DNA of 64,000 bases from a virus: positions 1 through 64,000 of IMG/VR virus record IMGVR_UViG_3300035698_004130; one strand, 5' to 3'. The notes under the pieces were generated by a model that was not told where the DNA came from, made no database searches, and saw only the letters and a list, made by a program, of their open reading frames with translations. The translations under genes and the position numbers were made by a program. Below, one piece after another: positions 1 to 29,228 of the stretch; position 1 is the first letter of the stretch; every line of letters starts with the position of its first letter.

Positions 1-128
1 AGTTCTTTTTAATGATGATTGTAATACCTGATCGGAAAACACGTAGTTTATACTACCCTGAGTAAGTTCAAGTCCTACAATCATCATTAGAACGCATTTG
101 ACTTTTCTTACACTCCACTTTGACTTTA

Positions 129-329
129 ATGGAAAGAACGCTTAAAAAGATTCTAGACGAGCTTAATGAGGTTCGTGACCCCCAAGAAAAGGGTCTAAGT
201 GAACGTGATGGTGACCTTGACTTTGTTAGGCGTATCCATACAACAGCTAACTTACAGAATGAGTTGGAACGGGCAATTAGAGATATTCTAGTATACCCTT
301 CCAGGCAGGTTATCCCAGTAAGGATTTGA
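129..329 (+). CDS. small hypothetical early protein
   Basis: ORF with ATG at 129 directly after a TTTGACTTTA motif; stop TGA lies in the next copy of the motif. Confidence 0.6.
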   Translation: MERTLKKILDELNEVRDPQEKGLSERDGDLDFVRRIHTTANLQNELERAIRDILVYPSRQVIPVRI

Positions 330-484
330 CTTTTATGACCATCATCTACAACTTTCTTGATAGAGTATGCTATCTGCTTGGCCTTCACGTTGTCGGACCA
401 TTGCAACACTGTATCTCTAAGCTGTTTCGGAAGTCTAGCAACTGATTTGACTTTTCTTCCTTCCTTGACTTTCCTGACGTAACC

Positions 485-631
485 ATGGACAAATTTAAAA
501 ACCTTACTGCATGTGATATCTTTGCTTTAATTGGTGTGATTGCTGGCGTGCTAATGGGATGTATCTCTCTATATGAGGGTAACAACACAGTATCAATGTG
601 GGCTTTCAACTGCCTCACTAAGACGGTTTGA
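485..631 (+). CDS. small membrane peptide (48 aa, below ORF-track cutoff)
   Basis: MDKFKNLTACDIFALIGVIAGVLMGCISLY..., one hydrophobic stretch. Confidence 0.5.
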   Translation: MDKFKNLTACDIFALIGVIAGVLMGCISLYEGNNTVSMWAFNCLTKTV

Positions 632-636
632 CTTTT

Positions 637-807
637 ATGCTACCTAGATTTAAAGACCACGATCTCTCCAACATGAAAATTGAATTTACAAAGGTTCCAA
701 CCTCATTCAAGTTCTCCTTTGTTTGTATTCTTGCTATCCAGTTTGTTATCATACCCCTTATCATTTGGGGTTTATACGAGCTTGTAATGTTTATCCAACG
801 AAGCTAA
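637..807 (+). CDS. small membrane peptide (56 aa)
   Basis: ...FSFVCILAIQFVIIPLIIWGLYELVMFIQRS; stop abuts next ATG. Confidence 0.55.
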   Translation: MLPRFKDHDLSNMKIEFTKVPTSFKFSFVCILAIQFVIIPLIIWGLYELVMFIQRS

Positions 808-808
808 C

Positions 809-1069
809 ATGGAAGCTCAACATAAACATGAAATAGATGGAATCACCTATGGTTTCAACATTGAGCATGTTAGTTCTGGGCCAGGACTGCCAAGTTATGA
901 TATCGCATACATTATGTGGGCTACCATTACGGATGCAGATACCTTTATTGACGCTTACGGTGAAGCAGAGCATATCATGGCAGACCTAGATCCTTTGGGT
1001 TGGGCACATGAACAATTCTTCGACAATGATGGTGATGGTGTTATTACCCACCACAACAAGACACAGTGA
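809..1069 (+). CDS. hypothetical acidic protein
   Basis: ORF track; tight packing with neighbours. Confidence 0.65.
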   Translation: MEAQHKHEIDGITYGFNIEHVSSGPGLPSYDIAYIMWATITDADTFIDAYGEAEHIMADLDPLGWAHEQFFDNDGDGVITHHNKTQ

Positions 1070-1458
1070 TAAAACCAACAATGTATTCAGGTAAAGCAGC
1101 TTGGACTCCCGCTATTCTTCGAAAAGCAGCAAAGGCTATTGAAGAGGCTTCTGATGAAGTATTGAAGCGTTGGACTAACAACTTCTTTGGAACTGTTAGT
1201 TATGATGGAATTGATCGTGATCCTTGACCCGCTGCAATTTGTGTTCGTGAAGCACATCTAAATAGTAAGGATTCCCAAGATAGCGTTATCAATGCAGCAT
1301 TTGGAACTCAGACTACCCTACAACGCTTACTGGAATATGAGTTAGACTACACAAAAGACTACTACGATCATTTCCACAGTAGGGAAAGTTCCATCATACT
1401 TGCAAATGATCTTAGAAAACTTGCATCCCTAATTGGGAACAATGCGACACGTAACTAA
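1066..1458 (+). CDS. hypothetical protein with in-frame TGA at 1225-1227 (candidate selenoprotein or readthrough); paralog of next gene
   Basis: frame is open 1066/1081-1458 except for one TGA: ...KAIEEASDEVLKRWTNNF...DP*PAAICVR... Confidence 0.6.
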
Positions 1459-1792
1459 GGAAGATTGGTTGGCTGTAGTAAAGCACATACGTGAAGCTAG
1501 CCAAGAAGAACTCGATCATTGGGCATTTAATTGGGAGAATTGACCCGCAGATGTTATGACCGCCCGTGTTGGTGGTGAATCATGTGCTAGTGCAATCGAA
1601 GAAGCTCCAGACAATACAGAGAAGATTGATAGGGATGGGACTGAGGATAATGATATTATGTTCGGCCTATTAAATAGAGTTTGGCACGGAAGCCAAAGAA
1701 ATAGGTGTAAAGATTCCTACAACTTCTATCTATCAACTAGCTCTGAAGAAGTCGCAATGGCATTTGAAGAATATGCAAACAGCATGAGCTAA
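1442..1792 (+). CDS. hypothetical protein with in-frame TGA at 1541-1543 (candidate selenoprotein or readthrough)
   Basis: MRHVTKEDWLAVVKHIREASQEELDHWAFNWEN*PADVMTARVGG... is in frame with track ORF 1556..1792. Confidence 0.6.
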
Positions 1793-1808
1793 CTATATAG
1801 ACCTACAA

Positions 1809-1885
1809 GACCACGTAACCCAATTGGCAGAGGTAAGAGGCTTAAAACCTCTTCAGTGTGGGTTCGACCCCCACCGTGGTTACCA
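1809..1885 (+). tRNA. tRNA-Leu(TAA), short variable arm
   Basis: cloverleaf: GACCACG/CGTGGTT, AGAGG-CTTAAAA-CCTCT, TTCGA loop, 3' CCA. Confidence 0.9.
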
Positions 1886-1904
1886 CTAACAACAGAACAA
1901 TATT

Positions 1905-2153
1905 ATGAACATCGAGCTAAAAAATATCACCCCTATCATTACCCGTAAGGATCTAAAGCCTGGGGCAGTGTATTCTATCTTAAAAGGCTCTGATAGTAGA
2001 TTCATGGTGATTGATATGAATTGCATGAGGATTAACCCAGGAGTGAGCATTGCTACTCACGTTAGTATTGATCTTGCAACTCACAAACTTGTGCATAGCG
2101 TTAACCCTGAGATGGAAGTTATCTTTCATGGGAATAGTAAGTTCACATGGTAA
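1905..2153 (+). CDS. small beta-rich protein, paralog family A
   Basis: ITRKDLKPGAVY motif shared with neighbouring ORFs. Confidence 0.7.
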   Translation: MNIELKNITPIITRKDLKPGAVYSILKGSDSRFMVIDMNCMRINPGVSIATHVSIDLATHKLVHSVNPEMEVIFHGNSKFTW

Positions 2154-2342
2154 ACATTAGTGCCGACTTCTGGCCCGGATATAAGCTTACCTAAGATAGT
2201 GGTAATGAGAAGGCTATCAAGGTCTTAGAAGCTTTGAAGCATAAGTGGGCATCCACAACAGATACAAACACTCAAACCCTTACCCGAAAGCTGCTACACA
2301 AAGACATTGAATTGATTATCAGTGTCCTTAAAGAGAATTAAT

Positions 2343-2591
2343 ATGAAGATCTCAATTACTCCACCAAACCTTACTCGTGCTGACCTAAATCCTGGAACAC
2401 TATTCTCTCACTATAATGGAGGTGAAGTCTGGCTAGCAGTTGAGAAGAACTCCATTCTCTTTGATGGTGAGTTTATGAGTAGTGGAAACAAGTTTGGTTG
2501 TGTGTCTCTTTCCACTGGGAAACTATGCCACTCACGGGGAGCTGATAAGGTTATCAACCTAGGGACTATTTCCCTTTCCCAGAAAGTTTAA
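2343..2591 (+). CDS. small beta-rich protein, paralog family A
   Basis: LTRADLNPGTLF motif; ATG 2343 preferred. Confidence 0.7.
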   Translation: MKISITPPNLTRADLNPGTLFSHYNGGEVWLAVEKNSILFDGEFMSSGNKFGCVSLSTGKLCHSRGADKVINLGTISLSQKV

Positions 2592-2599
2592 CAATATTC

Positions 2600-2676
2600 T
2601 GCCCTCTAGTGTAATCTGGTTAGCACATCAGACTTTGATTCTGGTAGTCTGAGTTCAAATCTCAGGGGGGCAACCA
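2600..2676 (+). tRNA. tRNA-Gln(TTG)
   Basis: TGCCCTC/GGGGGCA, TCAGA-CTTTGAT-TCTGG, CCA. Confidence 0.93.
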
Positions 2677-2698
2677 TTTACCGCCAACAGATAGACTA

Positions 2699-2953
2699 AT
2701 GCTTACGAAGATTGAAAAAGTAGATATTACCACTCCCCTTCACGAAGTTGAAGCTGGTATAATTGTTACCCTGGCCTCACAAGGGGGGGAATTCCTCACC
2801 ATTACCCAGGATTGTGACACACAAGCTATGCTCGATGCCTCAGGGACTACAGATACACTTGTTATCCTGAATATTAGGTATAGCGAGATCCAAACTATGC
2901 TTAGGGACAGTAAGGCAACTATTATTGGTAAGCTGACCTATGGGGTTCTATAA
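2699..2953 (+). CDS. small protein, probable paralog family A
   Basis: PLHEVEAGIIV; similar length and C-terminus (KATIIGKL). Confidence 0.65.
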   Translation: MLTKIEKVDITTPLHEVEAGIIVTLASQGGEFLTITQDCDTQAMLDASGTTDTLVILNIRYSEIQTMLRDSKATIIGKLTYGVL

Positions 2954-2957
2954 TACT

Positions 2958-3218
2958 ATGCATGTTTTACAAGTAAACAAGTCCGCTGCTCCAAAGCTCC
3001 TTACTGCCCAAAGTGTTCCAACAGGAATGTTCTTTCATATTCCGGAGGAATGCCATGGAAATGCCGACCAAGTATACCTGAAGACCGGCACACTTTCCTT
3101 TGTGTGCTTTAGTAAGTTCCATGAGCGTCCAAGGGTTGATAGTGGTTACTCCTGTAGGACTGACGAGTGTGTGGTCCTTGTTCCCACTGAAAACGTAAAG
3201 ATTGAGTTCTCCCTGTAA
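2958..3218 (+). CDS. small protein, probable paralog family A
   Basis: LTAQSVPTGMFF motif. Confidence 0.65.
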   Translation: MHVLQVNKSAAPKLLTAQSVPTGMFFHIPEECHGNADQVYLKTGTLSFVCFSKFHERPRVDSGYSCRTDECVVLVPTENVKIEFSL

Positions 3219-3360
3219 TGGAAACTGAAAATGCTCAAGAGGGTGTTAAGTTTCACCACATCCTTCTATACATCGTAGTTCCCCTAGTTCTTGTGTTAGC
3301 TGTTGATGCGGTTGTTAGTTATTACAACTATGTTGGCCAAGGCTTAATCACTTACTAACA

Positions 3361-3576
3361 ATGAAATACCTTCTATCTTTGTCTATCCTCCTAATGGGAG
3401 CCTGTGCGCCCTCCAAGGAGTCTCACATCTTACCTACGGTTGTTGAAGATCCTTGGGTCCACATTGCAGGAGTGCCAAAGATGGGCTTGAACACGCTTAA
3501 GATTGATGAGGGGACCATATACCTGTTCCAATTTGATTATGGAACTTGCATTACATTTGTTCCAAGTAAGAAGTGA
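3361..3576 (+). CDS. small lipoprotein
   Basis: MKYLLSLSILLMGAC signal peptide with lipobox. Confidence 0.65.
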   Translation: MKYLLSLSILLMGACAPSKESHILPTVVEDPWVHIAGVPKMGLNTLKIDEGTIYLFQFDYGTCITFVPSKK

Positions 3577-3797
3577 TGAAATACATTGAAGCAGAAGTAG
3601 AGATCACCTTTCGCAAGAAGGTTTTCATTGCTCGTGCAAATTGGGATAAGCGAGCAGAGGATATGGTTAGAGAGAAGGCATCCCAAATCGTTTTTGATAA
3701 GTTTGAATCGGTTAAGATCCTAGGCTACAAAAGAGCCGATTCTTTAGTAGAGCCTGGGTTGACAGGCCATATTAATTCGGTAGAATCCAGAGTATGA
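3576..3797 (+). CDS. hypothetical protein
   Basis: ORF track; TGATG coupling. Confidence 0.6.
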   Translation: MKYIEAEVEITFRKKVFIARANWDKRAEDMVREKASQIVFDKFESVKILGYKRADSLVEPGLTGHINSVESRV

Positions 3798-3976
3798 ACC
3801 ACCAGCGCATCAAAGACCTCATTACCAAGCTAGAGAGCAGCGGCATCTGCAAGGAAGGTAGAGATACCATTGCCAGCATCCTAGTGGAATAAACATACCT
3901 TCGTCCAAGCGAAGTAAAACTAGGTGTTAGGCTTGGAGCGTCCAAAAGGAAATTCTTAACTTTTGGGGTCACATTT

Positions 3977-4053
3977 GCATCCTTAGCTCAGTTGGATAGA
4001 GCAACGGGTTTCTAACCCGTAGGTCGTAGGTTCAAGTCCTACAGGGTGTGCCA
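3977..4053 (+). tRNA. tRNA-Arg(TCT)
   Basis: GCATCCT/AGGGTGT, ACGGG-TTTCTAA-CCCGT, CCA. Confidence 0.95.
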
Positions 4054-4073
4054 TTTTTTGCTTGAGATAAGTT

Positions 4074-4436
4074 ATGAAAACAGTTGAAATTAATCGTGCT
4101 AAGTGGGCCAGAGGTAAGATCAACGGTGATCCTAGCTTACTGAATGAGGATGGTAACATGTGTTGCCTAGGGTTTGCTTGCAAACAACTACTTGGGTTAA
4201 CAGACAATCAAATTAGACATATTGGGGAACCTCATGAAGCTATTAATGGGACATTTAATTGTGATTATACAGTGTTCACTAACTTTGAGGAAGAGAGAAG
4301 CCAACATTATGATAACGACTTCGCATTAACTGCAATGAAAATCAATGATAGCACCAGTATAGAAGATTCTCTGAGAGAGACAAACCTTATTAAGCTATTC
4401 AGCGACAATGGCCTAGAACTTACCTTTGAAGACTAA
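4074..4436 (+). CDS. conserved phage protein (CCLG motif family)
   Basis: MCCLGFAC...INDS; similar to 45559..45891. Confidence 0.75.
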   Translation: MKTVEINRAKWARGKINGDPSLLNEDGNMCCLGFACKQLLGLTDNQIRHIGEPHEAINGTFNCDYTVFTNFEEERSQHYDNDFALTAMKINDSTSIEDSLRETNLIKLFSDNGLELTFED

Positions 4437-4437
4437 T

Positions 4438-4692
4438 ATGAAAATTAACGTAAAGAACATTACTGGCCCACCGTTGTATCGAGTCGAGCTTGAAATGACG
4501 CAAGAGGAGATTAACTTTTTCAAGTGTGTCGTTGGATCAGTCTCCGGGGATCATAGGGGTCCAAGGCAAGTCACTGAGGCTATTTACCGGGCGCTTAGTG
4601 AGGCTGGAGCGGAGAGCACAGTGCTGTTTGAAAACAACTTGTCTGCTCCTGATAATTGGGATGCTTTCCATGAAAAGATGAAGGATGCTTAA
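4438..4692 (+). CDS. hypothetical protein, tandem duplicate B1
   Basis: CVVGSVSGDHRGPR...APDNW. Confidence 0.75.
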   Translation: MKINVKNITGPPLYRVELEMTQEEINFFKCVVGSVSGDHRGPRQVTEAIYRALSEAGAESTVLFENNLSAPDNWDAFHEKMKDA

Positions 4693-4951
4693 TATGACAA
4701 TTACAACTAAGACAGTCAAAACTCCGCAACATAGTATTACCATTGAGTTGAGCCAGAGAGAAGCAGACTTCCTAAGGTGTATTGTGGGTAGCATTACAGG
4801 TAGCTGCGATGGGCCTAGAGGGTTCTCTGATGAGATATACGTTGCCCTTGGTAATGTCAGTGATACTGCGTGTGTCTTGTTTGATGATACGCTAAAGGCT
4901 CCCGATTCATGGGAAGAATTCCAAAGCCGTGTTAAGGCTAGGGTTGTATAA
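4685..4951 (+). CDS. hypothetical protein, tandem duplicate B2
   Basis: CIVGSITGSCDGPR...APDSW. Confidence 0.75.
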   Translation: MLNMTITTKTVKTPQHSITIELSQREADFLRCIVGSITGSCDGPRGFSDEIYVALGNVSDTACVLFDDTLKAPDSWEEFQSRVKARVV

Positions 4952-5207
4952 TATGTTAATCACAGTAGAAACTACGGAACCAATGTTTGATCTAACTCTC
5001 TCCCTTAGTATTGGGGAAGCTGAAGCCCTTCGAACCATGGTTGTCCAGTATAGTGATGGATAGCAGTCTGTTTGGGAAAGTGCTGTTCACAATATTCCTT
5101 GTTGTGGTATCAGTGTGGCTCTATTGGGAAATGGAGTTTGATAAGTAGTTTTGTTGGTTGTAGTTTACCTTTTCTGCATAATATTACTCATTTTCCTATA
5201 TTTCGAG

Positions 5208-5235
5208 TTGAAAAAGTGGATTACTAAGCTATAAT
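5208..5235 (+). promoter_or_regulatory. sigma70-like promoter for main tRNA/ncRNA cluster
   Basis: TTGAAA-16 nt-TATAAT upstream of tRNA-Met. Confidence 0.6.
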
Positions 5236-5253
5236 CACTACATAACTGAACAA

Positions 5254-5331
5254 AGCGAGATGGTGTAGGTTGGCCTAGCACGTCGGTCTCATAAGCCGAA
5301 GCCACAGGTTCGAATCCTGTTCACGCTACCA
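5254..5331 (+). tRNA. tRNA-Met(CAT), initiator-like anticodon arm
   Basis: TCGGT-CTCATAA-GCCGA, T arm ACAGG TTCGAAT CCTGT, CCA. Confidence 0.88.
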
Positions 5332-5416
5332 TCAGAAATCACAGTTAGTCGTGTGGGCCTTTAAAAGAAGGTATTCGCTGGGATGATGACCCCTTGACAA
5401 TTCAATTTTTTACAAC

Positions 5417-5519
5417 GCTAACCTATTGGTGCTTTTTCAACATCGCGCTAGTAATAGTGTGTAGAGCCTTGAGGTTGGTTAAACACTTGCCAATATAGAC
5501 TCCACATCAATAGGTTAGC
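5417..5519 (+). ncRNA. putative structured ncRNA
   Basis: GCTAACCTATTGGTG pairs with CATCAATAGGTTAGC; internal GTAA-tetraloop hairpin. Confidence 0.5.
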
Positions 5520-5529
5520 ACATTTTTTT

Positions 5530-5601
5530 GGAAGTCTAGCATAATTTGGTTAAATGCAGTCGCTAAAACGAGTATGGTAGGTTCGATTCCTACTGCTTCC
5601 T
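5530..5601 (+). pseudogene. degenerate tRNA-like element
   Basis: D and T arms intact; anticodon arm collapsed (TCG-CTAAAA-CGA); no CCA. Confidence 0.6.
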
Positions 5602-5674
5602 GAAGTTTAACAGAACTTCAACTCTGTAAGGTTTAAACGCTGCTTGCTTCCTTTCAAAAAGCTGTGGAAACTTT

Positions 5675-5750
5675 CAGAAATTAGTGTAGTCTGGTAACAT
5701 GCAAGCTTTGGGAGTTTGTGTCCTCAGTTCAAATCTGAGATTTCTGACCA
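5675..5750 (+). tRNA. tRNA-Pro(TGG)
   Basis: CAGAAAT/ATTTCTG, CAAGC-TTTGGGA-GTTTG, CCA. Confidence 0.92.
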
Positions 5751-5817
5751 TAAACCGGGAAAGCCTCCGGTTCAAAATAACATAGGCTTGACGAGGGGGA
5801 CAGAGTGCTCCCACCAT

Positions 5818-5891
5818 GCATTTCTCGTATATTGGTATTACATTTGGCTTCCAATCAAAGGAACAGTGTTCGATTCACTGGAGATGCTCCA
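5818..5891 (+). tRNA. tRNA-Gly(TCC)
   Basis: GCATTTC/GAGATGC, TTTGG-CTTCCAA-TCAAA, U73, CCA. Confidence 0.9.
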
Positions 5892-6083
5892 ATGTCACCT
5901 AGTAACGCGACTATAAACTTAGTTACTACCAGTTTGTAAGGGGGCTTCTGGTATACCAAAAACGCATCCACCATACTCATCTTCTCGTGGCTGAGTGTCC
6001 CAAAGCACATGATTGCAAATATGGCCTATGATCTTACTCACAGTAGTTGTCGGTAAGGACCCAGAGATAGGCAATTGACTCGT

Positions 6084-6189
6084 GTTGTGAGGGACTGCAC
6101 ACATCCTATCATCCCTCAACTTTTCATTCGGGGCCTCTATGGCAATGCGAATAATCCTGCCCCAGATAGGATTAAAGCAGTCCTACAAT
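6084..6189 (+). ncRNA. putative structured ncRNA (long interrupted hairpin)
   Basis: nested pairings GGGACTGC/GCAGTCCT, ATCCTATC/GATAGGAT, GGGGC/GCCCC. Confidence 0.5.
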
Positions 6190-6223
6190 AACTATGTTTG
6201 ACAGACCGGAGAGACGGTCATTA

Positions 6224-6296
6224 GGGGTCGCATGTCCCAAGGCGGCGAGAAACCTTTGCAAGGTATCTGAGAAGAGTTCGATTCTCTTCGACTCCA
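6224..6296 (+). tRNA. tRNA-Ala(TGC), no encoded CCA
   Basis: GGGGTCG/CGACTCC with G3.U70; loop TTTGCAA. Confidence 0.8.
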
Positions 6297-6305
6297 TTAC
6301 TTTTC

Positions 6306-6457
6306 GGGCTTATAGCTTAATGGTTAGAGCTAACTTACAGAAATGTAAGGTGCATTAGAGGTAGTTTAGTAACACTGATCGATAAAGATACGGAACGATA
6401 CCTAATGTTAGGGCTAACAAGGCCCTGATCTGAGTTCGAATCTAAGTGAGTCCACCA
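6306..6457 (+). ncRNA. tRNA-like RNA with ~79-nt structured insertion after the D arm
   Basis: GGGCTTA/TGAGTCC-A-CCA, D arm, insertion, AGGGC/GCCCT arm, T arm. Confidence 0.7.
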
Positions 6458-6499
6458 ACATTCATGAATTAGGCAAGATGGAGTAATTACCTATCTTCG

Positions 6500-6570
6500 G
6501 TGTAGGGAAGTGTAACGGATGCACGGCCTGTCTAGCAGGTAAGAGCGGTTCGACTCCGCACCTACTATCC
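6500..6570 (+). ncRNA. degenerate tRNA-like element with CTA at anticodon position
   Basis: D arm GTGT/GCAC, GCCT-GTCTAGC-AGGT, T loop TTCGACT; weak acceptor stem. Confidence 0.5.
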
Positions 6571-6695
6571 TTTTAATACATCTCTCTCATGCAACAGAGG
6601 TTTAAACATGCATGATGGTTCGGATCCCATGGGTATCAATCTCCAATGTATCGCAGCTTCTTTCATTGGGGAGGGCCAAACGTCCACCATATTTT

Positions 6696-6773
6696 GTATC
6701 CTTAGCTCAGTCTAGCTAGAGCGTTCGGTTGAAGCCCTTAAGGTCGTTGGTGCGAATCCAACAGGATACACCA
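6696..6773 (+). tRNA. tRNA-Phe(GAA), poorly paired anticodon stem
   Basis: GTATCCT/AGGATAC, loop TTGAAGC, CCA. Confidence 0.75.
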
Positions 6774-7281
6774 TTATTGAAGTCGTGAATAATCACGTAA
6801 CAACCTTTGAAATAGTGGTGTAAGCCCACTAACTATTGAGGATTTAACATTCCAATCTTAGCGGATTGGTTAGTTCATAAGATTTTCATTCTGAAGGTTG
6901 TCGGTTCGAGTCCGTCACGGAGTATCATTTTTTTAGTTAGTTAATGACAGATAGCAAAACTTACATTGGTGATGGAGCTTACGTTGAGGTTGAACATGGT
7001 AGGGTAAAACTTACTACAAACAACGGATACGAAGATACCAACACCATTCTCATGGAGGGGCCAGTAGTGGAATCCTTTATTCGATGGGTCCAGAAGATTA
7101 AGAGTAGTATACAATGACGAAATATGTTTTAGGATTCATGCTCCTCCTTATTGTGGGCATCCCAGGTTGCTATGTGTTCAATTGGGCTTCCAAAGCATCA
7201 ACTGTTGTTACAGAAGAGATGACCGTAGAAGAGAAGTAGTTGGGTCTGGGCGACAGTTCGAAAGAGTATGTCACCCCATTT

Positions 7282-7355
7282 GGGTTGTTAGTTCAATGGT
7301 AGAACGGCAGGTTGTTAACCTGCGAACGAAGGTTCGATTCCTTCACTTCCCTCCA
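7282..7355 (+). tRNA. tRNA-Asn(GTT)
   Basis: GCAGG-TTGTTAA-CCTGC, CCA. Confidence 0.88.
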
Positions 7356-7370
7356 CTTTAAGCTCTAAAT

Positions 7371-7445
7371 AGGTCTATAATTCAACGGCTAGAATATGCG
7401 ACTTTTAATCGCTCAATCTGGGTTCGATTCCCAGTGGACCTACCA
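7371..7445 (+). tRNA. tRNA-Lys(TTT)
   Basis: AGGTCTA/TGGACCT, loop CTTTTAA, CCA. Confidence 0.92.
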
Positions 7446-7456
7446 CTTATACACTG

Positions 7457-7530
7457 GCTTCTTTAGCTCAATGATAGAGCCTTCCCCTTGTAAGGGAGAG
7501 ACGAGAGTTTGATTCTCTCAGGAAGCTCCA
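7457..7530 (+). tRNA. tRNA-Thr(TGT)
   Basis: GCTTCTT/AGGAAGC, TTCCC-CTTGTAA-GGGAG, CCA. Confidence 0.9.
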
Positions 7531-7568
7531 CTATCTGTTCTTTGAATTAAACGTATTTTTTTGTGTGT

Positions 7569-7658
7569 GGCAGTGTGGCGAAATTGGCTATACGCGCTAG
7601 CCTTAGAAGCTAGTGAGGGTAATTCCTCGTGCAGGTTCGAGTCCTGTCACTGCTACCA
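7569..7658 (+). tRNA. tRNA-Leu(TAG), long variable arm
   Basis: GGCAGTG/CACTGCT, CTAGC-CTTAGAA-GCTAG, CCA. Confidence 0.95.
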
Positions 7659-7664
7659 TTTGTT

Positions 7665-8408
7665 ATGCTTAGTAAATTACTAATCGCGCTTCTATTTGTT
7701 GGAACACTCGTAGCCCAACAACCACAATCCTTTACTGTAGCATCAGTCCAAGATGCACCTTTTGTTAACTGCACTTTGCTTGGTGATACCACCAGTGAAC
7801 TTGCTCGTTGCACAGGGTGTGGGGCTGGTACTCCTGAACAAAAGGATGATAGTGGAACTTTTCAAGATATGACTAAGAACTCTGATGGGACTTTCACTGC
7901 TGTTGGTATAATTGGATGGGAAAGCACTGCTGGAGGGGGTGCTCATCTTTACCTCAACAGAATCACTATTACCACAAAGGATGGTGCGTGTGAAGTAGAG
8001 GATGAAGGCTGTAAAACAAAGACACAATGTGAAGCAGTGCATGAACTTAACTTCATGATGTTTACTTCTACTCAGTTAGAAGCAATGGAATCACTCATTG
8101 TTACAATTTCGGGACAAACTGTTGTTGTTGGACTGAATGCCATTCCTACTTGGAATGGTGCATGGTGGGTATCTAACTATGTTATGGGTAGTGCAGTTGG
8201 GGGTGATTGTGGAGTTACTTACGCTGCCACTGTGTATGACCCTACCGCAATGGACCCTCATACAGCTAGCCATCAATCAATACCCCCTATAACGGGTGAT
8301 GTAGCTTTAGAGTTTCAATTTGAGTGTGTAGAATGCACTTATGAAGCTTATGACCAACCTACACACTCTCTACCTCTTGAGATGTGGTATCAAGCTAATT
8401 TTCACTAA
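7665..8408 (+). CDS. secreted Cys-rich protein
   Basis: start at 7665 gives signal peptide MLSKLLIALLFVGTLVA; several Cys including CxxC. Confidence 0.75.
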   Translation: MLSKLLIALLFVGTLVAQQPQSFTVASVQDAPFVNCTLLGDTTSELARCTGCGAGTPEQKDDSGTFQDMTKNSDGTFTAVGIIGWESTAGGGAHLYLNRITITTKDGACEVEDEGCKTKTQCEAVHELNFMMFTSTQLEAMESLIVTISGQTVVVGLNAIPTWNGAWWVSNYVMGSAVGGDCGVTYAATVYDPTAMDPHTASHQSIPPITGDVALEFQFECVECTYEAYDQPTHSLPLEMWYQANFH

Positions 8409-8438
8409 ATCTTCTGCCTAGCTTCGGCTAGGTAGTTC

Positions 8439-8515
8439 AGGCATCTAGCTTAATTGGATAGAGCGGCAGATTACGGATCCGTCAGATATAGGTTCAACTC
8501 CTATGGTGCCTACCA
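8439..8515 (+). tRNA. tRNA-Arg(ACG)
   Basis: AGGCATC/GGTGCCT, loop TTACGGA, CCA. Confidence 0.88.
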
Positions 8516-9063
8516 CATGTTAAACGAAGATTGGATGATGATTGAAGATATCACAATGATGGAAGTATTGTTCTTCTGTGGTTGTGACATGCCAGAGTAA
8601 TTATGACAAAGTTAAACGATAACGTAGGGGAAATTACCCTTAAAGAGTTTTATGCCATCACATCAATCATGAACCTAGTGAACTGTCACCCAGAAATTGT
8701 GGAAGTTTTTGAGCAAAAGGCCATGAAGACTTTGGTGTGTATGGTAGACAGGATTGACGGAGTATGACTAAGAAAGAAGCTTTAATAATGGTAGAGTATG
8801 ATGGTTGGACTATCGACTGTGATGGAAAGACTTATCGTTACAACCATAATGATGAAGATTACGGAGGTAAGGTCTTGGCAAAATTGCTTAAAGACCTTGG
8901 ACTCAAAGTAAAAGTAGAAGAGGCTTACTAACACAAGAAGGATTGCATCTCAGACTTAGTTGGAAAACACTTTTGAGGGGTTGTAATCGCAGACACTACT
9001 AATAGAAAGTGTTCCACCTTTGGCTCAGTGTATTGAGGATCTAAAAAGGATAGAAGCAAACAA

Positions 9064-9139
9064 GGACGATTAGCTCAGTTGGTAGAGCACCTCTTTTACA
9101 AGGAGGAAGTCGTAGGTTCGAGTCCTATATCGTCTACCA
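9064..9139 (+). tRNA. tRNA-Val(TAC)
   Basis: GGACGAT/ATCGTCT, CCTCT-TTTACAA-GGAGG, CCA. Confidence 0.94.
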
Positions 9140-9301
9140 TAACTACATATACATGTGGAGCTTACAAAAGAAGAGAGCCTGCGAATGGCTATTGACATCT
9201 TTTACTCAATTGAAAACTTTGAGAGATACGAGAACGACTTCCCAATAATCATACTGTTTCTAGTTGATTATTTGAGTTGGAGTTCTAAAGAACCAGAATA
9301 A

Positions 9302-9333
9302 TCCTTGGTAGCTCAGTTGGTTAGAGCACTTGC
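9302..9333 (+). pseudogene. isolated tRNA 5' half
   Basis: TCCTTGG TA GCTCAGTTGGTTAGAGC A CTTGC with no anticodon loop or T arm following. Confidence 0.65.
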
Positions 9334-9374
9334 AGGAATTATACCCTATTGTAACTAGAGGAGAAATTCTTAGC

Positions 9375-9698
9375 ATGATTCAAGCACAAACAAATAAAAC
9401 CCCCGATCCCACACCTACTATGCCATATTACGAAGTTCACATCACATTCCTAGGACCACTAAAAGGAACTCCACCAAGACCTTGGAAATACTCCCGGATT
9501 GACGGTGACCCTGTTCTTGGTAAAGGTATCAAAGATTACCTTACTAGACAGTATAAGGGAGGGACAGAAAAGATGCTCATGATTAACGACATTGAAATAG
9601 CTAGTAGGAGGCTTAAGAGTAGAGGCCATACTGTCCTACGAGAGAAGATTGATGATGTTATCTATGATACGAAGATTCTCCCTGAAAGCTTTTTTTAG
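9375..9698 (+). CDS. conserved phage hypothetical protein
   Basis: ORF track; YYEVHITF...REKIDDVIYDTK; start uncertain. Confidence 0.65.
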   Translation: MIQAQTNKTPDPTPTMPYYEVHITFLGPLKGTPPRPWKYSRIDGDPVLGKGIKDYLTRQYKGGTEKMLMINDIEIASRRLKSRGHTVLREKIDDVIYDTKILPESFF

Positions 9699-9718
9699 CT
9701 CTAACCCAATATAGTTCT

Positions 9719-9943
9719 ATGAGAAACGGAAACCACAAAGAAGGATGTGATGAGCAAACATTCACTTACTCAGGCTCAGAGTATAACAGAGTAAAAGTGT
9801 GTAGATGTGGTGCCGAGGATCATGCTCCCGACTTTACCCCAGAGCTTATTGCTAAGATGGAGAAGTCCAGACAGAATACCCTAAAGATCATCCAAGAGAT
9901 GGAAGACGAGAAAGTGAAAAATTTCAATAACTCTCACCTGTAA
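9719..9943 (+). CDS. small hypothetical protein (possible Zn binding)
   Basis: H..C...CRC. Confidence 0.55.
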   Translation: MRNGNHKEGCDEQTFTYSGSEYNRVKVCRCGAEDHAPDFTPELIAKMEKSRQNTLKIIQEMEDEKVKNFNNSHL

Positions 9944-9949
9944 ACATAT

Positions 9950-10037
9950 GCTAGTGTATCCAAGTCCGGTTCAAAGGATGGGGATTGTAAATCCTCCGGC
10001 TCTGCCTTCGTAGGTTAGAATCCTACCGCTAGCACCA
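9950..10037 (+). tRNA. tRNA-Tyr(GTA)
   Basis: GCTAGTG/CGCTAGC, GGGGA-TTGTAAA-TCCTC, long variable arm, CCA. Confidence 0.92.
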
Positions 10038-10042
10038 ATACT

Positions 10043-10076
10043 AAACCCTCTGAGAACTAACTCATAGGGTTTTTTT
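10043..10076 (+). terminator. intrinsic terminator at strand convergence
   Basis: AAACCCT.TGAG/CTCA.AGGGTTT hairpin plus T run. Confidence 0.8.
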
Positions 10077-10080
10077 ATAC

Positions 10081-12114
10081 CTACATGTTTTGGGTCTCAA
10101 CAACACACCACCACTCATCTTCCCAGGCGTTGTCAGGATCCTCTCCATTACTGAAGTATCTGGAACAAGCAATAGCTTTTTCCTTCATTGGACCGGCAGG
10201 AAGGAACTCAGCAGCAGCCATAACAGCAGCCTTAGTCCAACCATTGACTCCATCTCTCCCATACTCAATGTAAACATTATCCTTATGAAGTCCACCAGGG
10301 ATAGGTTCACCATCACGATACCATTGGTCTGACACAAACCACCAACCATCAGTAGCTTCAAAACATCCTTGATCCACAATAGTTGTAAACAATGTTAAAA
10401 GTGTGCTTTTGGTTAGTGGGGAAGGATTTGCTTTGTGAGCATTGTATAGTCCTACGAGTGCTATACCATGCTCCCATACGCTCCAGGTCGGTAGAAGGTT
10501 TCCTTGGGCGTCAAAGATGGGCTTACGACCGTCTGGACTATTGACTCCGATGACCTTAACTGGCCCTGGGTAGTTGAAGGTATTAAGACCATTCATTACT
10601 TCCCACTTGAGTTGTAGGTGTGCTTTAATATTTTCCTTGACCTCACCTTCATCAACAAGAGTTAAGAAGTTAGCGAGGCACCCAGCCATTCTTCCTTGTG
10701 CTCTAGCTGCACCCGATCCACGATACTTAAATCTATGAGAAGCCATGTCAGTGGTTGTAATATGATTTATAATATCCATGGCTAGTGGATCATCGCTTAG
10801 TTGTATGTATGCAGCTAAGTTGTTCTGGCTTCTATGTTGGTCATCGTAACCCAACCATAGATCTCCAAATGGATTCAACTCAGTCTTCCCTAATCTATCG
10901 GGACTGACTCCAGTGTGCCAATGTGTTCTACCACTCCATGTAACCCAGTTCGGATGACTCTCAAGTCTTAAGGGAACAGCCTTACCGTCAACAATATCGT
11001 AGTGCATGAAACCTCTGTAGACATCATTATACACTGAGTGTTGATAAAGCTGGATATGCCTTGGATCTTTTGTCCTCACAGCATAGATTCCCTTAGTGGC
11101 TCCAAAGTCTTCTTGGTCACCTGTTGTTCCAGGGTTGTTCTGAATACCAACCATAGTAAGTGCTCCCCAGCCTTCAGTGGTTGCCATCTTATTCTTGAAC
11201 CGTTGCCATTCAGTAGCACTATCACTAAACATTTGGGAGGTATCAGACCTACGAGGGATCCACTTGTTTGCTAGCCATTCTCCATTCCAGGCATGGCATA
11301 CTCCATTCACTGGGCCTTGCAATGCGGCTAGTAGGGAGTTGAAATCCTTGCCATCCTCGTCTTCCTCGGGGTCTACGGGCGTTCCTGCTGGCCCAACAAA
11401 AGCTAAGAGTGATCCAGCAAGGGGGATTCCTCCACCGTCTCGCACTTCAATGTTTGAGCCTAAAAGAAGTTCCCACTTGTTACCAACCCTATGGGGTGTG
11501 GCAGCACCTACATTCTTAGCAAAGTCTAGAACAGGGAACTCACCACATCTTAGTAGTAAGTGTCCGAATCGCTTAGACTCGTTAGGATCGTTCCTATCAG
11601 ACCACACAATCTTACCCCAGAATTGGATAACAGGGTCATCATGGTTAATGTCAGCCCACCATTCAAAGACCACACCACCGGGCAGAACCTTGCGTAGGAA
11701 CCATCTCTGGTGGACAGATGATTCTTCAACCATCTTAATCTCCTCCATATCCGCATTGGAACTCCATAGGATAGAGCTTGCTGGAGCACCATGCTCAACA
11801 ACGCCAATGTCTGGGATAGTGGCTAAGATATCGTCAGCAACCCACTTATGATACTTGTAGGGGACGTTAGCCGTTACATGAGCTTCAGGGATGAGGCTTC
11901 CCTTGAGTCTTTCACTACCTTCCATATTAGTGAATACTCTAAACACATCAGTGTTTACTCCTCGGCTCCCAGTTCGAACAGCGCGAAACTTAAACCCTGC
12001 ATCAGCCTCGAAGGTTGATTCATTAGGGAAATTCGCTGCTTTGTCCGATGGGAACGTAACAATAGCGGTCTTGTCTCTAGACCCAGGTGATAGATTTGTA
12101 ATAGTGGCACGCAT
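10081..12114 (-). CDS. large hypothetical protein, possibly glycan-active or virion-associated
   Basis: 677 aa, Trp/Gly/Asp-rich; TAGATA late-like motif upstream. Confidence 0.8.
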   Translation of the reverse strand: MRATITNLSPGSRDKTAIVTFPSDKAANFPNESTFEADAGFKFRAVRTGSRGVNTDVFRVFTNMEGSERLKGSLIPEAHVTANVPYKYHKWVADDILATIPDIGVVEHGAPASSILWSSNADMEEIKMVEESSVHQRWFLRKVLPGGVVFEWWADINHDDPVIQFWGKIVWSDRNDPNESKRFGHLLLRCGEFPVLDFAKNVGAATPHRVGNKWELLLGSNIEVRDGGGIPLAGSLLAFVGPAGTPVDPEEDEDGKDFNSLLAALQGPVNGVCHAWNGEWLANKWIPRRSDTSQMFSDSATEWQRFKNKMATTEGWGALTMVGIQNNPGTTGDQEDFGATKGIYAVRTKDPRHIQLYQHSVYNDVYRGFMHYDIVDGKAVPLRLESHPNWVTWSGRTHWHTGVSPDRLGKTELNPFGDLWLGYDDQHRSQNNLAAYIQLSDDPLAMDIINHITTTDMASHRFKYRGSGAARAQGRMAGCLANFLTLVDEGEVKENIKAHLQLKWEVMNGLNTFNYPGPVKVIGVNSPDGRKPIFDAQGNLLPTWSVWEHGIALVGLYNAHKANPSPLTKSTLLTLFTTIVDQGCFEATDGWWFVSDQWYRDGEPIPGGLHKDNVYIEYGRDGVNGWTKAAVMAAAEFLPAGPMKEKAIACSRYFSNGEDPDNAWEDEWWCVVETQNM

Positions 12115-12161
12115 ACAACTATCTATCTATTTCACTACCAGTTGATTGTTAAACAGGCAGG

Positions 12162-12746: not shown

Positions 12747-13676
12747 TTACCCCTTTTCAAGGTGGGTATTCAACATTCTGAGGATATCGTGATGACCTAG
12801 GCAAACCATATCCTCGGTTAGCTCATCTAGGTTAAAGTATTTAGCTTCCGCAAGGTCGTCTCCAGCAGTAGGAATACCGAATGTGGATGTGGTTAGGAAG
12901 AAAGCAGTCATTAGCGTATCAACTTCCTTTCGGTAGCGCCAATCATTAATTAGGGTAGATCCAATGAACTTGAAGTCTTGGTATTCCAAGTCTCCTACCT
13001 CTTCAGTGGCTTCCCTCTTTGCAGCTTCTTCAAGTGACGTATCCGCCTTCGGATCCACGAACCCTCCGGGAAATCTCCACCTGTCAAGCGGGTCAGTTTT
13101 CTTTCTGCCCAATACCAGCTTCTTACCAGTGTTGTCCAGAATCGCGATATCAACTGTTTGAAGGATCGCTGGATGTTTGTTAAATGCCGCATAGATTACT
13201 CCTCTTCGGAACTCTGAATGCTGGCGAACCTCGTCTGATACAGCCTTCCTTACATCTGTTCCCGAAAGTGTATTGCTATCTTGTAGCTCTACAGTTTCAT
13301 ACTTTCCATGGTAGTGAGGGATAAAGGAATCCCTTGAACCATAGATGTTAGCCGATACATGGTCACCAAAGGTTTCCACAATCTTATTATCGACTTGCTC
13401 AGACCAATCATAGTCCGATGGCATATCTTGTAATGGAAGAATAGTTAGCTTATGGTGGAACTCTTCTTTCAGCATCAACTTACGTGTTGCGAAATCCAGT
13501 GGGTTATTACGGGTAACCAGGACACCGGGAGTAGATCCCACGAGCACTAAAACTTTCCTATGGCGCTCTAAGATGCTGTAGATAAGATCGATGTGTCCGG
13601 CATGGAGATCAGATACTTGAAATCTTCCAATGATGACTCCAACCTCTGCTTTTTGTTCTGTTCGGTGTAGCATCAC
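12747..13676 (-). CDS. nadM: bifunctional NMN adenylyltransferase / Nudix ADP-ribose pyrophosphatase
   Basis: IGRFQ..LHAGH, SGTDVR, Nudix box PGGFVD...AAKREATEEVG. Confidence 0.92.
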   Translation of the reverse strand: MMLHRTEQKAEVGVIIGRFQVSDLHAGHIDLIYSILERHRKVLVLVGSTPGVLVTRNNPLDFATRKLMLKEEFHHKLTILPLQDMPSDYDWSEQVDNKIVETFGDHVSANIYGSRDSFIPHYHGKYETVELQDSNTLSGTDVRKAVSDEVRQHSEFRRGVIYAAFNKHPAILQTVDIAILDNTGKKLVLGRKKTDPLDRWRFPGGFVDPKADTSLEEAAKREATEEVGDLEYQDFKFIGSTLINDWRYRKEVDTLMTAFFLTTSTFGIPTAGDDLAEAKYFNLDELTEDMVCLGHHDILRMLNTHLEKG

Positions 13677-27273: not shown

Positions 27274-28287
27274 CTAAGATTTTTTCTTGTGTAGAAAAAC
27301 TTCTACTAGTAAACAGATACCCCAAATTTCATGTTTAGTCATAAGGGGATTCACAGGCAGATAACAACCATTCTCATGGGCGTTGATACAATTTCGTGGA
27401 TACTTAGCTGCAACTCCCATGGAAAGTGAGGGTTGAGAACTCATAGGTGAGAAGAAGCGTCTAGCGGCGATCCCATGCTTATTCAAAAACTCCACAAGCC
27501 CCTTGGGATCTTCAGTAATAATATCGTATACCCATACAGCATGTCTACGGGCATCTTTCTTTACTTCGGATGGAAGCCGTTCATCGTAAGTCTTAGCAAC
27601 TCTAAACCTCTCTTGGATGCTGAATTCCACATCGTCTAATGAATGTAAGATTAACTGGGCTTGAGAATCAGTCATCCTGTAATTGAAACCTTTGGTTTCA
27701 TGCACATAGTTATGCTCAGGAGTGAATGCCATATTCTTCATGCTTCTAAGCCTCTTGGCATATTCTGGGTCGTCTCGCACAGTGACCATTCCACCTTCTT
27801 CTCCAGCGATGATCTTGTTCTTGAAGAAAGAGAAACATCCAATACCGGCAGATCCAACCATCTTTCCACTAAATGGCCCATCCCAGTATACAGCCCCGTG
27901 AGCTTCTGCACAGTCCTCAATAAGGTCTAGGTCATGCTTTGCACATAGAGTGTGTAGGTATGCCATTGGAGAGACTCTACCATAAATGTGCGTCACCATG
28001 ATAGCCTTTGTTTTCTCAGTTATACACTCCTCAATACTAGCTAGATCAATATTGTAATCATATTCGGAGCAGCCAACAAACACAGGAGTATGTCCCGCAT
28101 ATGTGACTGCCCAAGCTGTTGCAATCATTGTGAAGTTAGGGACGATAATCTCAGTCCCTATTGGGTATTGTTTAGCCTCAATAGCTAGGTGAAGAGAGGC
28201 AGTTCCAGTATTAGCTGTTACCGCGTCTTTCACGCCGATATACTCAGCAAACTTATTCTCTAGGCGTTGGTAGCTTGGAAGTCCCAT
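27274..28287 (-). CDS. DegT/DnrJ/perosamine-synthase-type PLP sugar aminotransferase
   Basis: NTGTASLHLA, IEDCAEAHG, FSFFKNKII..EEGG, GFNYRM. Confidence 0.93.
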   Translation of the reverse strand: MGLPSYQRLENKFAEYIGVKDAVTANTGTASLHLAIEAKQYPIGTEIIVPNFTMIATAWAVTYAGHTPVFVGCSEYDYNIDLASIEECITEKTKAIMVTHIYGRVSPMAYLHTLCAKHDLDLIEDCAEAHGAVYWDGPFSGKMVGSAGIGCFSFFKNKIIAGEEGGMVTVRDDPEYAKRLRSMKNMAFTPEHNYVHETKGFNYRMTDSQAQLILHSLDDVEFSIQERFRVAKTYDERLPSEVKKDARRHAVWVYDIITEDPKGLVEFLNKHGIAARRFFSPMSSQPSLSMGVAAKYPRNCINAHENGCYLPVNPLMTKHEIWGICLLVEVFLHKKKS

Positions 28288-29228
28288 ACTTTGTTGTTTT
28301 TGTTAAAGAATTCAATGGTAGCCGTAAGCCCTTCTCTTAGAGAGAACTCAGGTCGATAATCAATAGTCTCAAATAACTTGGTGTTGTCTGATTGAAGATG
28401 CCAAATCTCCCAGGGTCTAACCTTAGCTGCATCAACAGTGATTTTAATTTCCTCATAGCCCATAATCTCACCAATCAATTCAGCCAGATCATAGATACTA
28501 ATTGTATCCTCACTACCCATGTTGTATACACCCCCAAAGTCTCCTGTTTCTAGAAGGTTGACAGCCATACGAACTGCATCACCAGCATATTGAAAGTCTC
28601 TTGAAGAGTTGTTTCCTAAGGTAATATTGGGTGAGTTTGCCAGTTGTGAGATGATCTCAGGGACAACATAGGCATGGGATTCTCTTTCACCAATACAGTT
28701 GAATTGGCGCATTGCAATAGCAGGAACTTTAGCTTCACGCCAACGAACTTGCACTAACCCATCGGCAGCAAGCTTGGAGACTCCGTAGGTGGAGTGTGCC
28801 TCAACCATATCAGTCTCCTTAATCTTACCAACCATGTCTCCGTAAATCTCAGCAGATGATACTTGAAGAATAGCCTTGACTCCTGCTTTCTGACAAGCGT
28901 TCAACACTCTCAATACAGAGGTAGCATTAATATCAAAGAAATGCATGGGGCGCTCAAAGCACTCAGGAATGTAGGGCTCTGCTGCATAGTTGAACACATA
29001 CTCAATATTGTTATCTGCTAGGATTCTGGATAACTCGTCCTCACTGTCCCGAATATCAAACCACTTAAAAGTAGCCTTAGAGTTTATATTCTTCTTGCTA
29101 CCTGTGATTAGATTGTCGAGAACCAGCACTTCGCAGTTTCTCTTATTAACCAAATAATCTACCAAGTGAGATCCAAGAAAACCAGCTCCACCGATCACAC
29201 ATACCTTTGCGTTCTTAATTGTCCTCAT
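28260..29228 (-). CDS. NDP-sugar 4,6-dehydratase/epimerase (extended SDR)
   Basis: GGAGFLGS, SSAEIYG, YGVSK. Confidence 0.92.
   Translation of the reverse strand: MRTIKNAKVCVIGGAGFLGSHLVDYLVNKRNCEVLVLDNLITGSKKNINSKATFKWFDIRDSEDELSRILADNNIEYVFNYAAEPYIPECFERPMHFFDINATSVLRVLNACQKAGVKAILQVSSAEIYGDMVGKIKETDMVEAHSTYGVSKLAADGLVQVRWREAKVPAIAMRQFNCIGERESHAYVVPEIISQLANSPNITLGNNSSRDFQYAGDAVRMAVNLLETGDFGGVYNMGSEDTISIYDLAELIGEIMGYEEIKITVDAAKVRPWEIWHLQSDNTKLFETIDYRPEFSLREGLTATIEFFNKNNKVWDFQATNA

Follow-up and report, generated by a model that had tools for sequence, protein, structure and literature searches.

In an uncultured phage two adjacent small genes, designated here A and B, are each interrupted by one in-frame TGA beyond which the reading frame stays open, and this raises the question of how such codons are read: as true stops, as scars of mutation, or as sites at which a part of the ribosomes is directed to continue. 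The genes lie within the first 64 kb of a linear virus record of 102,677 bp (IMG/VR record IMGVR_UViG_3300035698_004130; CheckV completeness 87%), and this analysed stretch of 64,000 nucleotides (nt) is called the window throughout. A first-pass annotation, made from the letters of the window, had proposed that A and B are tandem paralogues whose UGA is decoded either as selenocysteine (Sec) with the aid of the host or by programmed readthrough. Here, we addressed whether the two UGAs are decoded and, if so, by what. We regard the locus as a genuine and conserved pair of sites of UGA recoding within a phage gene family that is otherwise an orphan, and for these sites Sec is the leading, albeit unproven, reading; the whole case rests on two genomes, that of the window phage and that of a relative from TARA Oceans.

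The in-frame TGAs and the translation of what follows them

The features on which the argument depends are as follows.

1081–1458, plus strand: gene A, 125 codons including one in-frame TGA; GTG 1066 is an alternative start
1225–1227, plus strand: the TGA at codon 49 of gene A, flanked as GAT CCT TGA CCC GCT
1228–1455, plus strand: part of gene A after the TGA, 76 codons, followed by TAA 1456–1458
1442–1792, plus strand: gene B, 116 codons, one of them an in-frame TGA; in both phages it begins before gene A has ended
1541–1543, plus strand: the TGA at codon 34 of gene B, flanked as GAG AAT TGA CCC GCA
1556–1558, plus strand: in-frame ATG, shared by both phages, 12 nt past the TGA of gene B, at which translation might start independently or by re-initiation

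Both TGAs are embedded in the same 9-mer, TTGACCCGC (1224–1232 and 1540–1548), which occurs at these two places only in the entire 102,677-bp genome, so the identical context noticed by the first-pass annotation at 1225–1227 and 1541–1543 is indeed there. The frames also run on as it had described, over 76 codons in gene A and over 82 in gene B, the latter ending with TAA 1790–1792. Its gene starts needed correction to ATG 1442 for gene B and to ATG 1081 for gene A, the latter being only the probable start in view of GTG 1066; both ATGs are conserved in the TARA relative. An assembly error is not the source of the TGAs, because independent contigs from four other salt-lake metagenome runs (Logan) cover both sites with zero differences, and the salt-lake DNA contigs at the locus are free of variants. 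Elsewhere in the genome TGA is an ordinary stop, terminating 21 of the 134 open reading frames (ORFs) including the DnaB-like and SbcC-like genes, and a scan of every TGA in the genome yielded no further case with coding-like sequence on both sides. Genome-wide stop reassignment (e.g., TGA read as Trp) was rejected on this account, only two TGAs being affected and no UCA anticodon being available, and the first-pass annotation was right in denying a general change of code.

Search of 1.84 billion representative proteins with HMMER gave one match, a protein of 48 residues ending exactly at the TGA position. Its DNA is a TARA Oceans scaffold of 119.7 kb (L001), the sole relative locus found in the metagenome scan, where the order of genes is that of the window: an upstream gene of 86 amino acids, A, B, and tRNA-Leu. 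Proteins of the two phages share 67% identity for A and 49% for B, and the relative keeps both in-frame TGAs, at 10145–10147 (A) and 10461–10463 (B). In 14.6 kb of this scaffold TTGACCCGC is present only at both TGAs, and at least two matches were obtained in 0 of 200 shuffles. A U precedes and a C follows the UGA in four of four copies (genes A and B, both phages); the codon before the TGA of gene B differs, being AAT (Asn) in the window and GGT (Gly) in the relative.

Beyond this pair the family appears isolated. No relatives were detected by tblastn against 50,697 phage records or in a viral contig collection scanned with A, B, P0003, the neighbouring genes, and the tRNA-Leu DNA, and nothing homologous that has Cys, Trp, or a different residue in the UGA column emerged from the 1.84-billion HMMER set, a word-indexed set of 5.8 billion, the phage collection, or the viral contigs. 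Databases hold only fragments of the two genes, of 48 and of 78–85 amino acids. Inspection of the UGA column by homology search, which the first-pass annotation had offered as a check, yields TGA in both genes of the relative and no Cys homologue; judged from the databases searched, A and B form an otherwise orphan family with no relatives beyond the TARA phage. Sequence searches of Pfam, PHROG, NCBIfam, and PDB with the two genes gave no meaningful match, and ESM Atlas look-alikes of the exact downstream pieces were uninformative. AlphaFold2 models are all-helical, of low confidence near the UGA, and below the quality needed to look for similar folds, with predicted local distance difference test (pLDDT) values of 58.6 for A and 42.6 for B.

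The two genes are adjacent, and profile-profile comparison with hhalign relates them with P = 0.003 over the N-terminal helix, the UGA column not being used; in both, UGA-Pro-Ala follows shortly after the second predicted helix. The paralogy proposed by the first-pass annotation is thus upheld as real by the profile match, the shared U-P-A motif, and the tandem position, and it is weak: from their sequences, A and B appear to be weakly but credibly related tandem paralogues.

Translation of the sequences behind the TGAs was assessed by a codon-usage log-odds score trained on the long genes of the phage, for which real genes take values of 0.30 ± 0.10 and off-frame windows of −0.68 ± 0.26. Gene A scores 0.37 before and 0.24 after its TGA, gene B 0.33 after its TGA, and all the other five frames of both downstream segments are negative. 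Both phages keep the downstream frames open, with every insertion or deletion in them a multiple of three. The frame-0 ratio of nonsynonymous to synonymous changes (pN/pS) after the TGA equals 0.55 for gene A (p = 0.023) and 0.59 for gene B (p = 0.005), values similar to those before it (0.58 and 0.50, respectively); the other two frames of the downstream parts contain stops and carry no such signal, so that the constraint anticipated downstream of the TGA by the first-pass annotation is found in frame 0 only. Synonymous divergence (dS) between the phages amounts to about 0.5–0.9, and the TGAs are older than their split. In both phages the ATG of gene B overlaps the stop of gene A, an arrangement typical of serially translated genes. 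Since both TGAs are kept in a diverged relative and the frames behind them are under purifying selection, we take the UGAs for functional recoding sites, and comparison of the two genomes makes it highly probable that both are decoded.

This conclusion has to be weighed against readings in which the UGA is a genuine stop or a lesion. The locus might comprise four separate small genes, the downstream parts being translated by re-initiation or 70S scanning, in gene B from ATG 1556, 12 nt past the UGA, and in gene A from a non-canonical codon, e.g., ATT 1237. Conservation of ATG 1556 in both phages speaks for it, as does the delivery of the downstream part of gene B by gene callers as a stand-alone protein of 78–85 amino acids; disorder is predicted for the stretch containing the UGA, so that two separate chains would be structurally possible. 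Reading directly off the sequence, we found no Shine-Dalgarno-like motif at usable distance from ATG 1556 in either phage, which is no objection because the phage seems not to rely on Shine-Dalgarno sites. What makes this arrangement improbable is gene A, in which neither ATG nor GTG nor TTG occurs in frame behind the TGA in the window phage (one TTG in the downstream part of the relative is CTG in the window, so that no start is conserved), yet the 33 codons right after the TGA differ between the phages by conservative and synonymous changes, as translated sequence would. Lacking a conserved canonical start, the downstream part of gene A would be reachable only via the UGA. Furthermore, it is more economical to assume one mechanism for the two paralogues than a separate one for each, and the persistence of the U-P-A motif and of the 9-mer across diverged paralogues is hard to explain for a plain stop. 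We consider it very unlikely that the genes are pseudogenes decaying after nonsense mutations or that, in gene A only, peptidyl-tRNA-Pro hops from CCU over the UGA to CCC. The codons CCU UGA CCC of gene A do provide matched take-off and landing sites, and such +6 hops reportedly occur in E. coli; in gene B a hop onto CCC is impossible because AAU or GGU precedes the UGA, and translational bypass of the type of T4 gene 60 or of +6 hops was rejected on finding matched codons in gene A only. As to decay, the TGAs predate the split of the phages, yet the frames have stayed open under purifying selection. Two independent nonsense mutations, already held to be unlikely by the first-pass annotation, and old pseudogenes would not account for downstream parts that are conserved, open, and coding.

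Hairpins behind the UGAs and the possible decoder

All the evidence for decoding is silent on which residue is inserted, and at this point the structures downstream of the UGAs come into consideration.

1218–1263, plus strand: block of 46 nt, 100% identical in both phages, spanning the TGA of gene A and hairpin A; the longest identical run in gene A
1240–1256, plus strand: hairpin A, TGTGTT/CGTGA/AGCACA, with a 6-bp stem including one G-U pair, the loop CGUGA, and a UGA-to-loop distance of 18 nt
1559–1576, plus strand: hairpin B, ACCGCC/CGTGTT/GGTGGT, with a 6-bp stem and a UGA-to-loop distance of 21 nt, standing atop a lower GCA/UGC helix

These are the hairpins with CGTG-containing loops that the first-pass annotation had likened to the selenocysteine insertion sequence (SECIS), and their presence at 1240–1256 and 1559–1576 is confirmed. 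The rules for bacterial SECIS elements (bSECIS) prescribe an apical loop of 3–9 nt, an upper stem of 4–16 bp, a G usually followed by G/U in the first two loop positions, a spacing of 16–37 nt between UGA and loop, and a minimum free energy (MFE) of −7.5 kcal/mol or lower (PMC13188914; model of Zhang and Gladyshev 2005). Both hairpins conform to the rules on loop, stem, G-then-G/U, and spacing. Hairpin B passes the energy limit as well (region MFE −17.4 kcal/mol in the window and −15.3 in the relative). Hairpin A alone has −3.5 kcal/mol, and its 48-nt region reaches −7.1 in the window and −8.1 in the relative. The bSECIS check thus came out in favour of both elements on geometry, of B on energy, and left A at the border. 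In the TARA phage hairpin B has a stem of 8 bp and the loop CGUGCU instead of CGUGUU; there a synonymous C-to-U change leaves one pair in place as U-G, and two pairs are gained where GAA has become CAG. Counting from the U of the UGA, hairpin A presents its loop G and U at nt 23 and 24, which we take to be their positions in E. coli fdhF, the prototype of an in-ORF SECIS read by SelB. The codon CCC follows the UGA in all four copies and CGU encodes the loop Arg in all four, although CCC accounts for 18% of the Pro codons of the phage and CGU for 13% of its Arg codons; this conservation of rare codons suggests constraint at the RNA level. The only Cys of gene A, a conserved one, stands 5 residues past the UGA (U-x4-C), and gene B has a conserved Cys 14 residues past it (U-x13-C).

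Taken from sequence, decoding of the UGAs as Sec by the machinery of the host is the leading reading, held tentatively at somewhat under an even chance; hairpin geometry, the G-U loop, nucleotide-level constraint, and the conserved Cys near the UGA are what speaks in its favour. A and B would then be tandem paralogues of an orphan all-helical family of small proteins, encoded by a distant T4-like myophage in that part of its genome which is early and rich in tRNA genes, and each messenger would carry a programmed UGA recoding site. Most ribosomes would probably stop there and release peptides of 48 (A) and 33 (B) residues, and a fraction would decode the UGA, giving rise to full-length proteins of about 125 and 116 residues, respectively. 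The hairpin, 18–21 nt downstream and with G-U at loop positions 2–3, would recruit host SelB together with Sec-tRNA-Sec. Sec would be placed in the U-P-A motif near the conserved Cys, from which any redox function would be expected to follow.

A number of observations weigh against Sec. The family consists of two phages only and offers no Cys homologue for the standard Sec/Cys test; neither a CxxU or UxxC motif nor a thioredoxin-like fold is discernible in A and B, whose AlphaFold2 models are helical and of low confidence. None of selA, selB, selD, and selC is present in the phage genome. With respect to the host, labels of the homologues of a dTDP-sugar 4,6-dehydratase-like gene are scattered and give no usable signal, and the weak use of Shine-Dalgarno sites points, by our own inference, to host groups where the Sec trait may be uncommon. 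The energy of hairpin A is borderline, its −7.1 kcal/mol in the window just missing the −7.5 rule, and neither hairpin is unusually stable when compared with shuffled sequences (z = +0.58 for A and −1.54 for B). A rule-conforming hairpin stands behind 3.8–7.2% of random codons in the genes of this genome, and from this base rate the chance of finding it in two cases of two is about 0.0015–0.005. In a second MAFFT alignment the 5′ stem of A falls opposite the loop of B, so the hairpins may not be positionally homologous. Synonymous conservation after the UGA is non-significant alone, gene A retaining 87% of its codons overall and gene B keeping 7 of 8 degenerate codons against 58% expected (p about 0.09).

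The same UGAs might instead be leaky terminators of the Qbeta A1 kind working without selenium, at which a near-cognate tRNA, most likely tRNA-Trp, decodes a few per cent of passages at a fixed ratio of short to long product, the hairpin being incidental or serving to slow the ribosome. Qbeta exploits UGA readthrough as Trp, UGAC is said to be the weakest termination signal of E. coli, and a C-terminal Asp-Pro reportedly impairs termination; here UGA-C is preceded by U in four of four copies, and gene A has also Asp-Pro before the UGA. No special host machinery is needed, which suits a phage without Sec genes, the statistically unexceptional hairpins are no obstacle, and codon usage, open frames, and pN/pS back leaky readthrough as much as they back Sec. 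What leaves this explanation rather unlikely is that the hairpin with a G-U loop at SECIS distance behind both UGAs and the rare CCC and CGU in four of four copies go unexplained by it, that gene B has no Pro at position −1 (Asn in the window, Gly in the relative), and that structure-assisted readthrough is, to our knowledge, not established in bacteria. Of the interpretation given by the first-pass annotation, the part that takes the UGAs for recoding sites holds, and between its two alternatives, Sec and programmed readthrough, Sec is the likelier. Apart from the decoding by Sec on the known bacterial pattern, we envisage as an improbable joint possibility either a recoding cassette acting without SelB, made of UUGACCCGC plus hairpin and setting the ratio of short to full-length product in two early genes, or the founding of a phage-only selenoprotein family, which from the searches would have no cellular or Cys-containing relatives. 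We know of no structure-assisted UGA readthrough signal described for bacteria or DNA phages.

Several further candidates were tried and dismissed. The TTGACC at the site is not taken for a sigma-70 −35 box, there being no −10 element at 16–18 nt and no call in the promoter scan. An antisense gene behind the conservation was discarded on the non-coding scores of the minus-strand frames, and a +1 frameshift at the UGA on the closure of the +1 frame after 11 codons. Enrichment of tandem stops after TGA, considered as a sign of a leaky host, was not significant (p = 0.56). An Rfam scan of positions 1–12000 returned no SECIS, and at the A/B locus none of the other families either.

The phage and the surroundings of the locus

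Structural proteins encoded in the window include a gp23-type major capsid protein and a contractile tail sheath; a DnaB-like helicase, an SbcC-like ATPase, and ribonucleotide reductase are encoded as well. Because the capsid protein is only about 29% identical to its counterparts in cultured T4-like phages, the phage is considered a distant, uncultured T4-like myophage. Near-identical DNA is present in many “salt lake metagenome” runs. Small genes on the plus strand, with 15 tRNA genes scattered among them, make up positions 1–10 kb; A and B belong to this block and stand shortly before tRNA-Leu(UAA). A UCA anticodon is absent from all 15 phage tRNAs, none of which qualifies as tRNA-Sec or as a UGA suppressor, and the lack of tRNA-Sec reported by the first-pass annotation for the window extends to the whole 102.7-kb genome.

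The tRNA cluster contains several peculiar elements. The gene-like sequence at 5530–5601 (plus strand) has normal acceptor, D, and T arms and a 6-nt anticodon loop, CTAAAA; it is unassignable by ARAGORN and scores 29.7 bits in the Rfam tRNA model, barely above threshold, and may be decayed or non-decoding. When introns were allowed, ARAGORN proposed a 152-nt tRNA-Gly(ACC)-like gene with a 61-nt insert at 6306–6457 (plus strand). Low-threshold calls comprise a 67-nt tRNA-like sequence at 6501–6567 (plus strand) with the amber-reading anticodon CTA and another at 8510–8585 (plus strand) with a 4-base anticodon, TGAA; both may be noise, and the genome gave no sign of in-frame TAG recoding. Neither the sequence at 5530–5601 nor the low-threshold calls supplied a credible UCA anticodon. 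A Pistol self-cleaving ribozyme (Rfam RF02679) lies 3 nt 5′ of tRNA-Arg(UCU) in both phages, at 3899–3973 (plus strand) of the window and at 12989–13063 (plus strand) of the TARA scaffold, with scores of 53.5 and 52.1 bits, respectively, against a gathering score of 34.5; from its position it may process the 5′ end of the tRNA-Arg(UCU) transcript. Between the tRNA genes there is also a group of paralogous genes of about 82–92 amino acids with the motif T-R-x-D-L-x-P-G (window 1905–3218, plus strand), which is conserved in the relative (10847–12143, plus strand) and has no relatives in the viral contig collection.

Start sites of the phage make weak use of Shine-Dalgarno pairing, Shine-Dalgarno-like sequences being largely absent. 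A recurrent GACTATAAT or CTATAAT motif, located 10–20 nt 5′ of the start codons of several minus-strand genes, is a candidate phage promoter motif and, together with the scarcity of Shine-Dalgarno sites, provides a hint on the initiation mode of the host. The sugar 4,6-dehydratase-like gene (window 28260–29228, minus strand) belongs to a glycan operon and is 60–76% identical to genes of metagenome-assembled genomes labelled as Halieaceae, Acidobacteria, many groups of the candidate phyla radiation (CPR), and archaea, which suggests that it is widely mobile or that phage contigs were binned into these assemblies.

Known systems and the meaning of the locus

By analogy, the locus may work like the bacterial in-ORF SECIS/SelB systems, membership in which is unproven, its sequence-level features agreeing with theirs except for the energy in gene A. 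As in those genes, orthologues share one in-frame UGA that has conserved coding sequence before and after it, the coding region contains a small hairpin 16–37 nt downstream with G then U at the start of the loop, and UGA is an ordinary stop elsewhere in the genome. The differences are that here the genes belong to a bacterial virus without Sec machinery of its own, that the family is an orphan with no Cys-containing homologue, no recognisable redox fold, and no CxxU, that hairpin A is weaker than the energy limit of the model, and that two tandem paralogues share an identical 9-nt context of the UGA. Were the stops leaky, the likeness would be to Qbeta coat/A1, likewise a phage gene with a leaky UGA, a short major and an extended minor product, and no phage-encoded factor. 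Qbeta, however, has an RNA genome and a single site, for which no stimulatory hairpin is known, whereas here a DNA myophage has two paralogous sites, a hairpin behind each, and the strictly conserved UUGACCCGC context. With stop-reassigned phages, in which TAG or TGA is recoded in late genes by means of a phage suppressor tRNA, the locus has in common an in-frame stop inside a phage coding sequence, and it differs from them in that only two TGAs in 102.7 kb are affected and 0 of 15 phage tRNAs have a UCA anticodon. A link between phages and the selenocysteine system is known from Basilisk-like Bacillus phages, for which tRNA-SeC genes were reported and no phage selenoprotein was named (PMC6145125); there it is the tRNA gene that is found, and here candidate selenoprotein genes without tRNA-Sec. 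A literature search retrieved, within the searchable papers, no description of a phage-encoded selenoprotein, and a 2026 review of prokaryotic selenoproteomes leaves phages and viruses unmentioned.

Standard gene callers truncate or split genes of this type, and for this reason UGA recoding would be systematically missed in viral metagenomes. If the UGAs of A and B are leaky stops, they would represent a readthrough switch like that of Qbeta, here carried by a DNA phage and equipped with a hairpin and a defined nucleotide context. If they are decoded as Sec, a phage of lytic type would use the rarest decoding pathway of its host for two early proteins, selenoproteins would be extended to the viruses of bacteria, and phage gene expression would be tied to the selenium status of the host.

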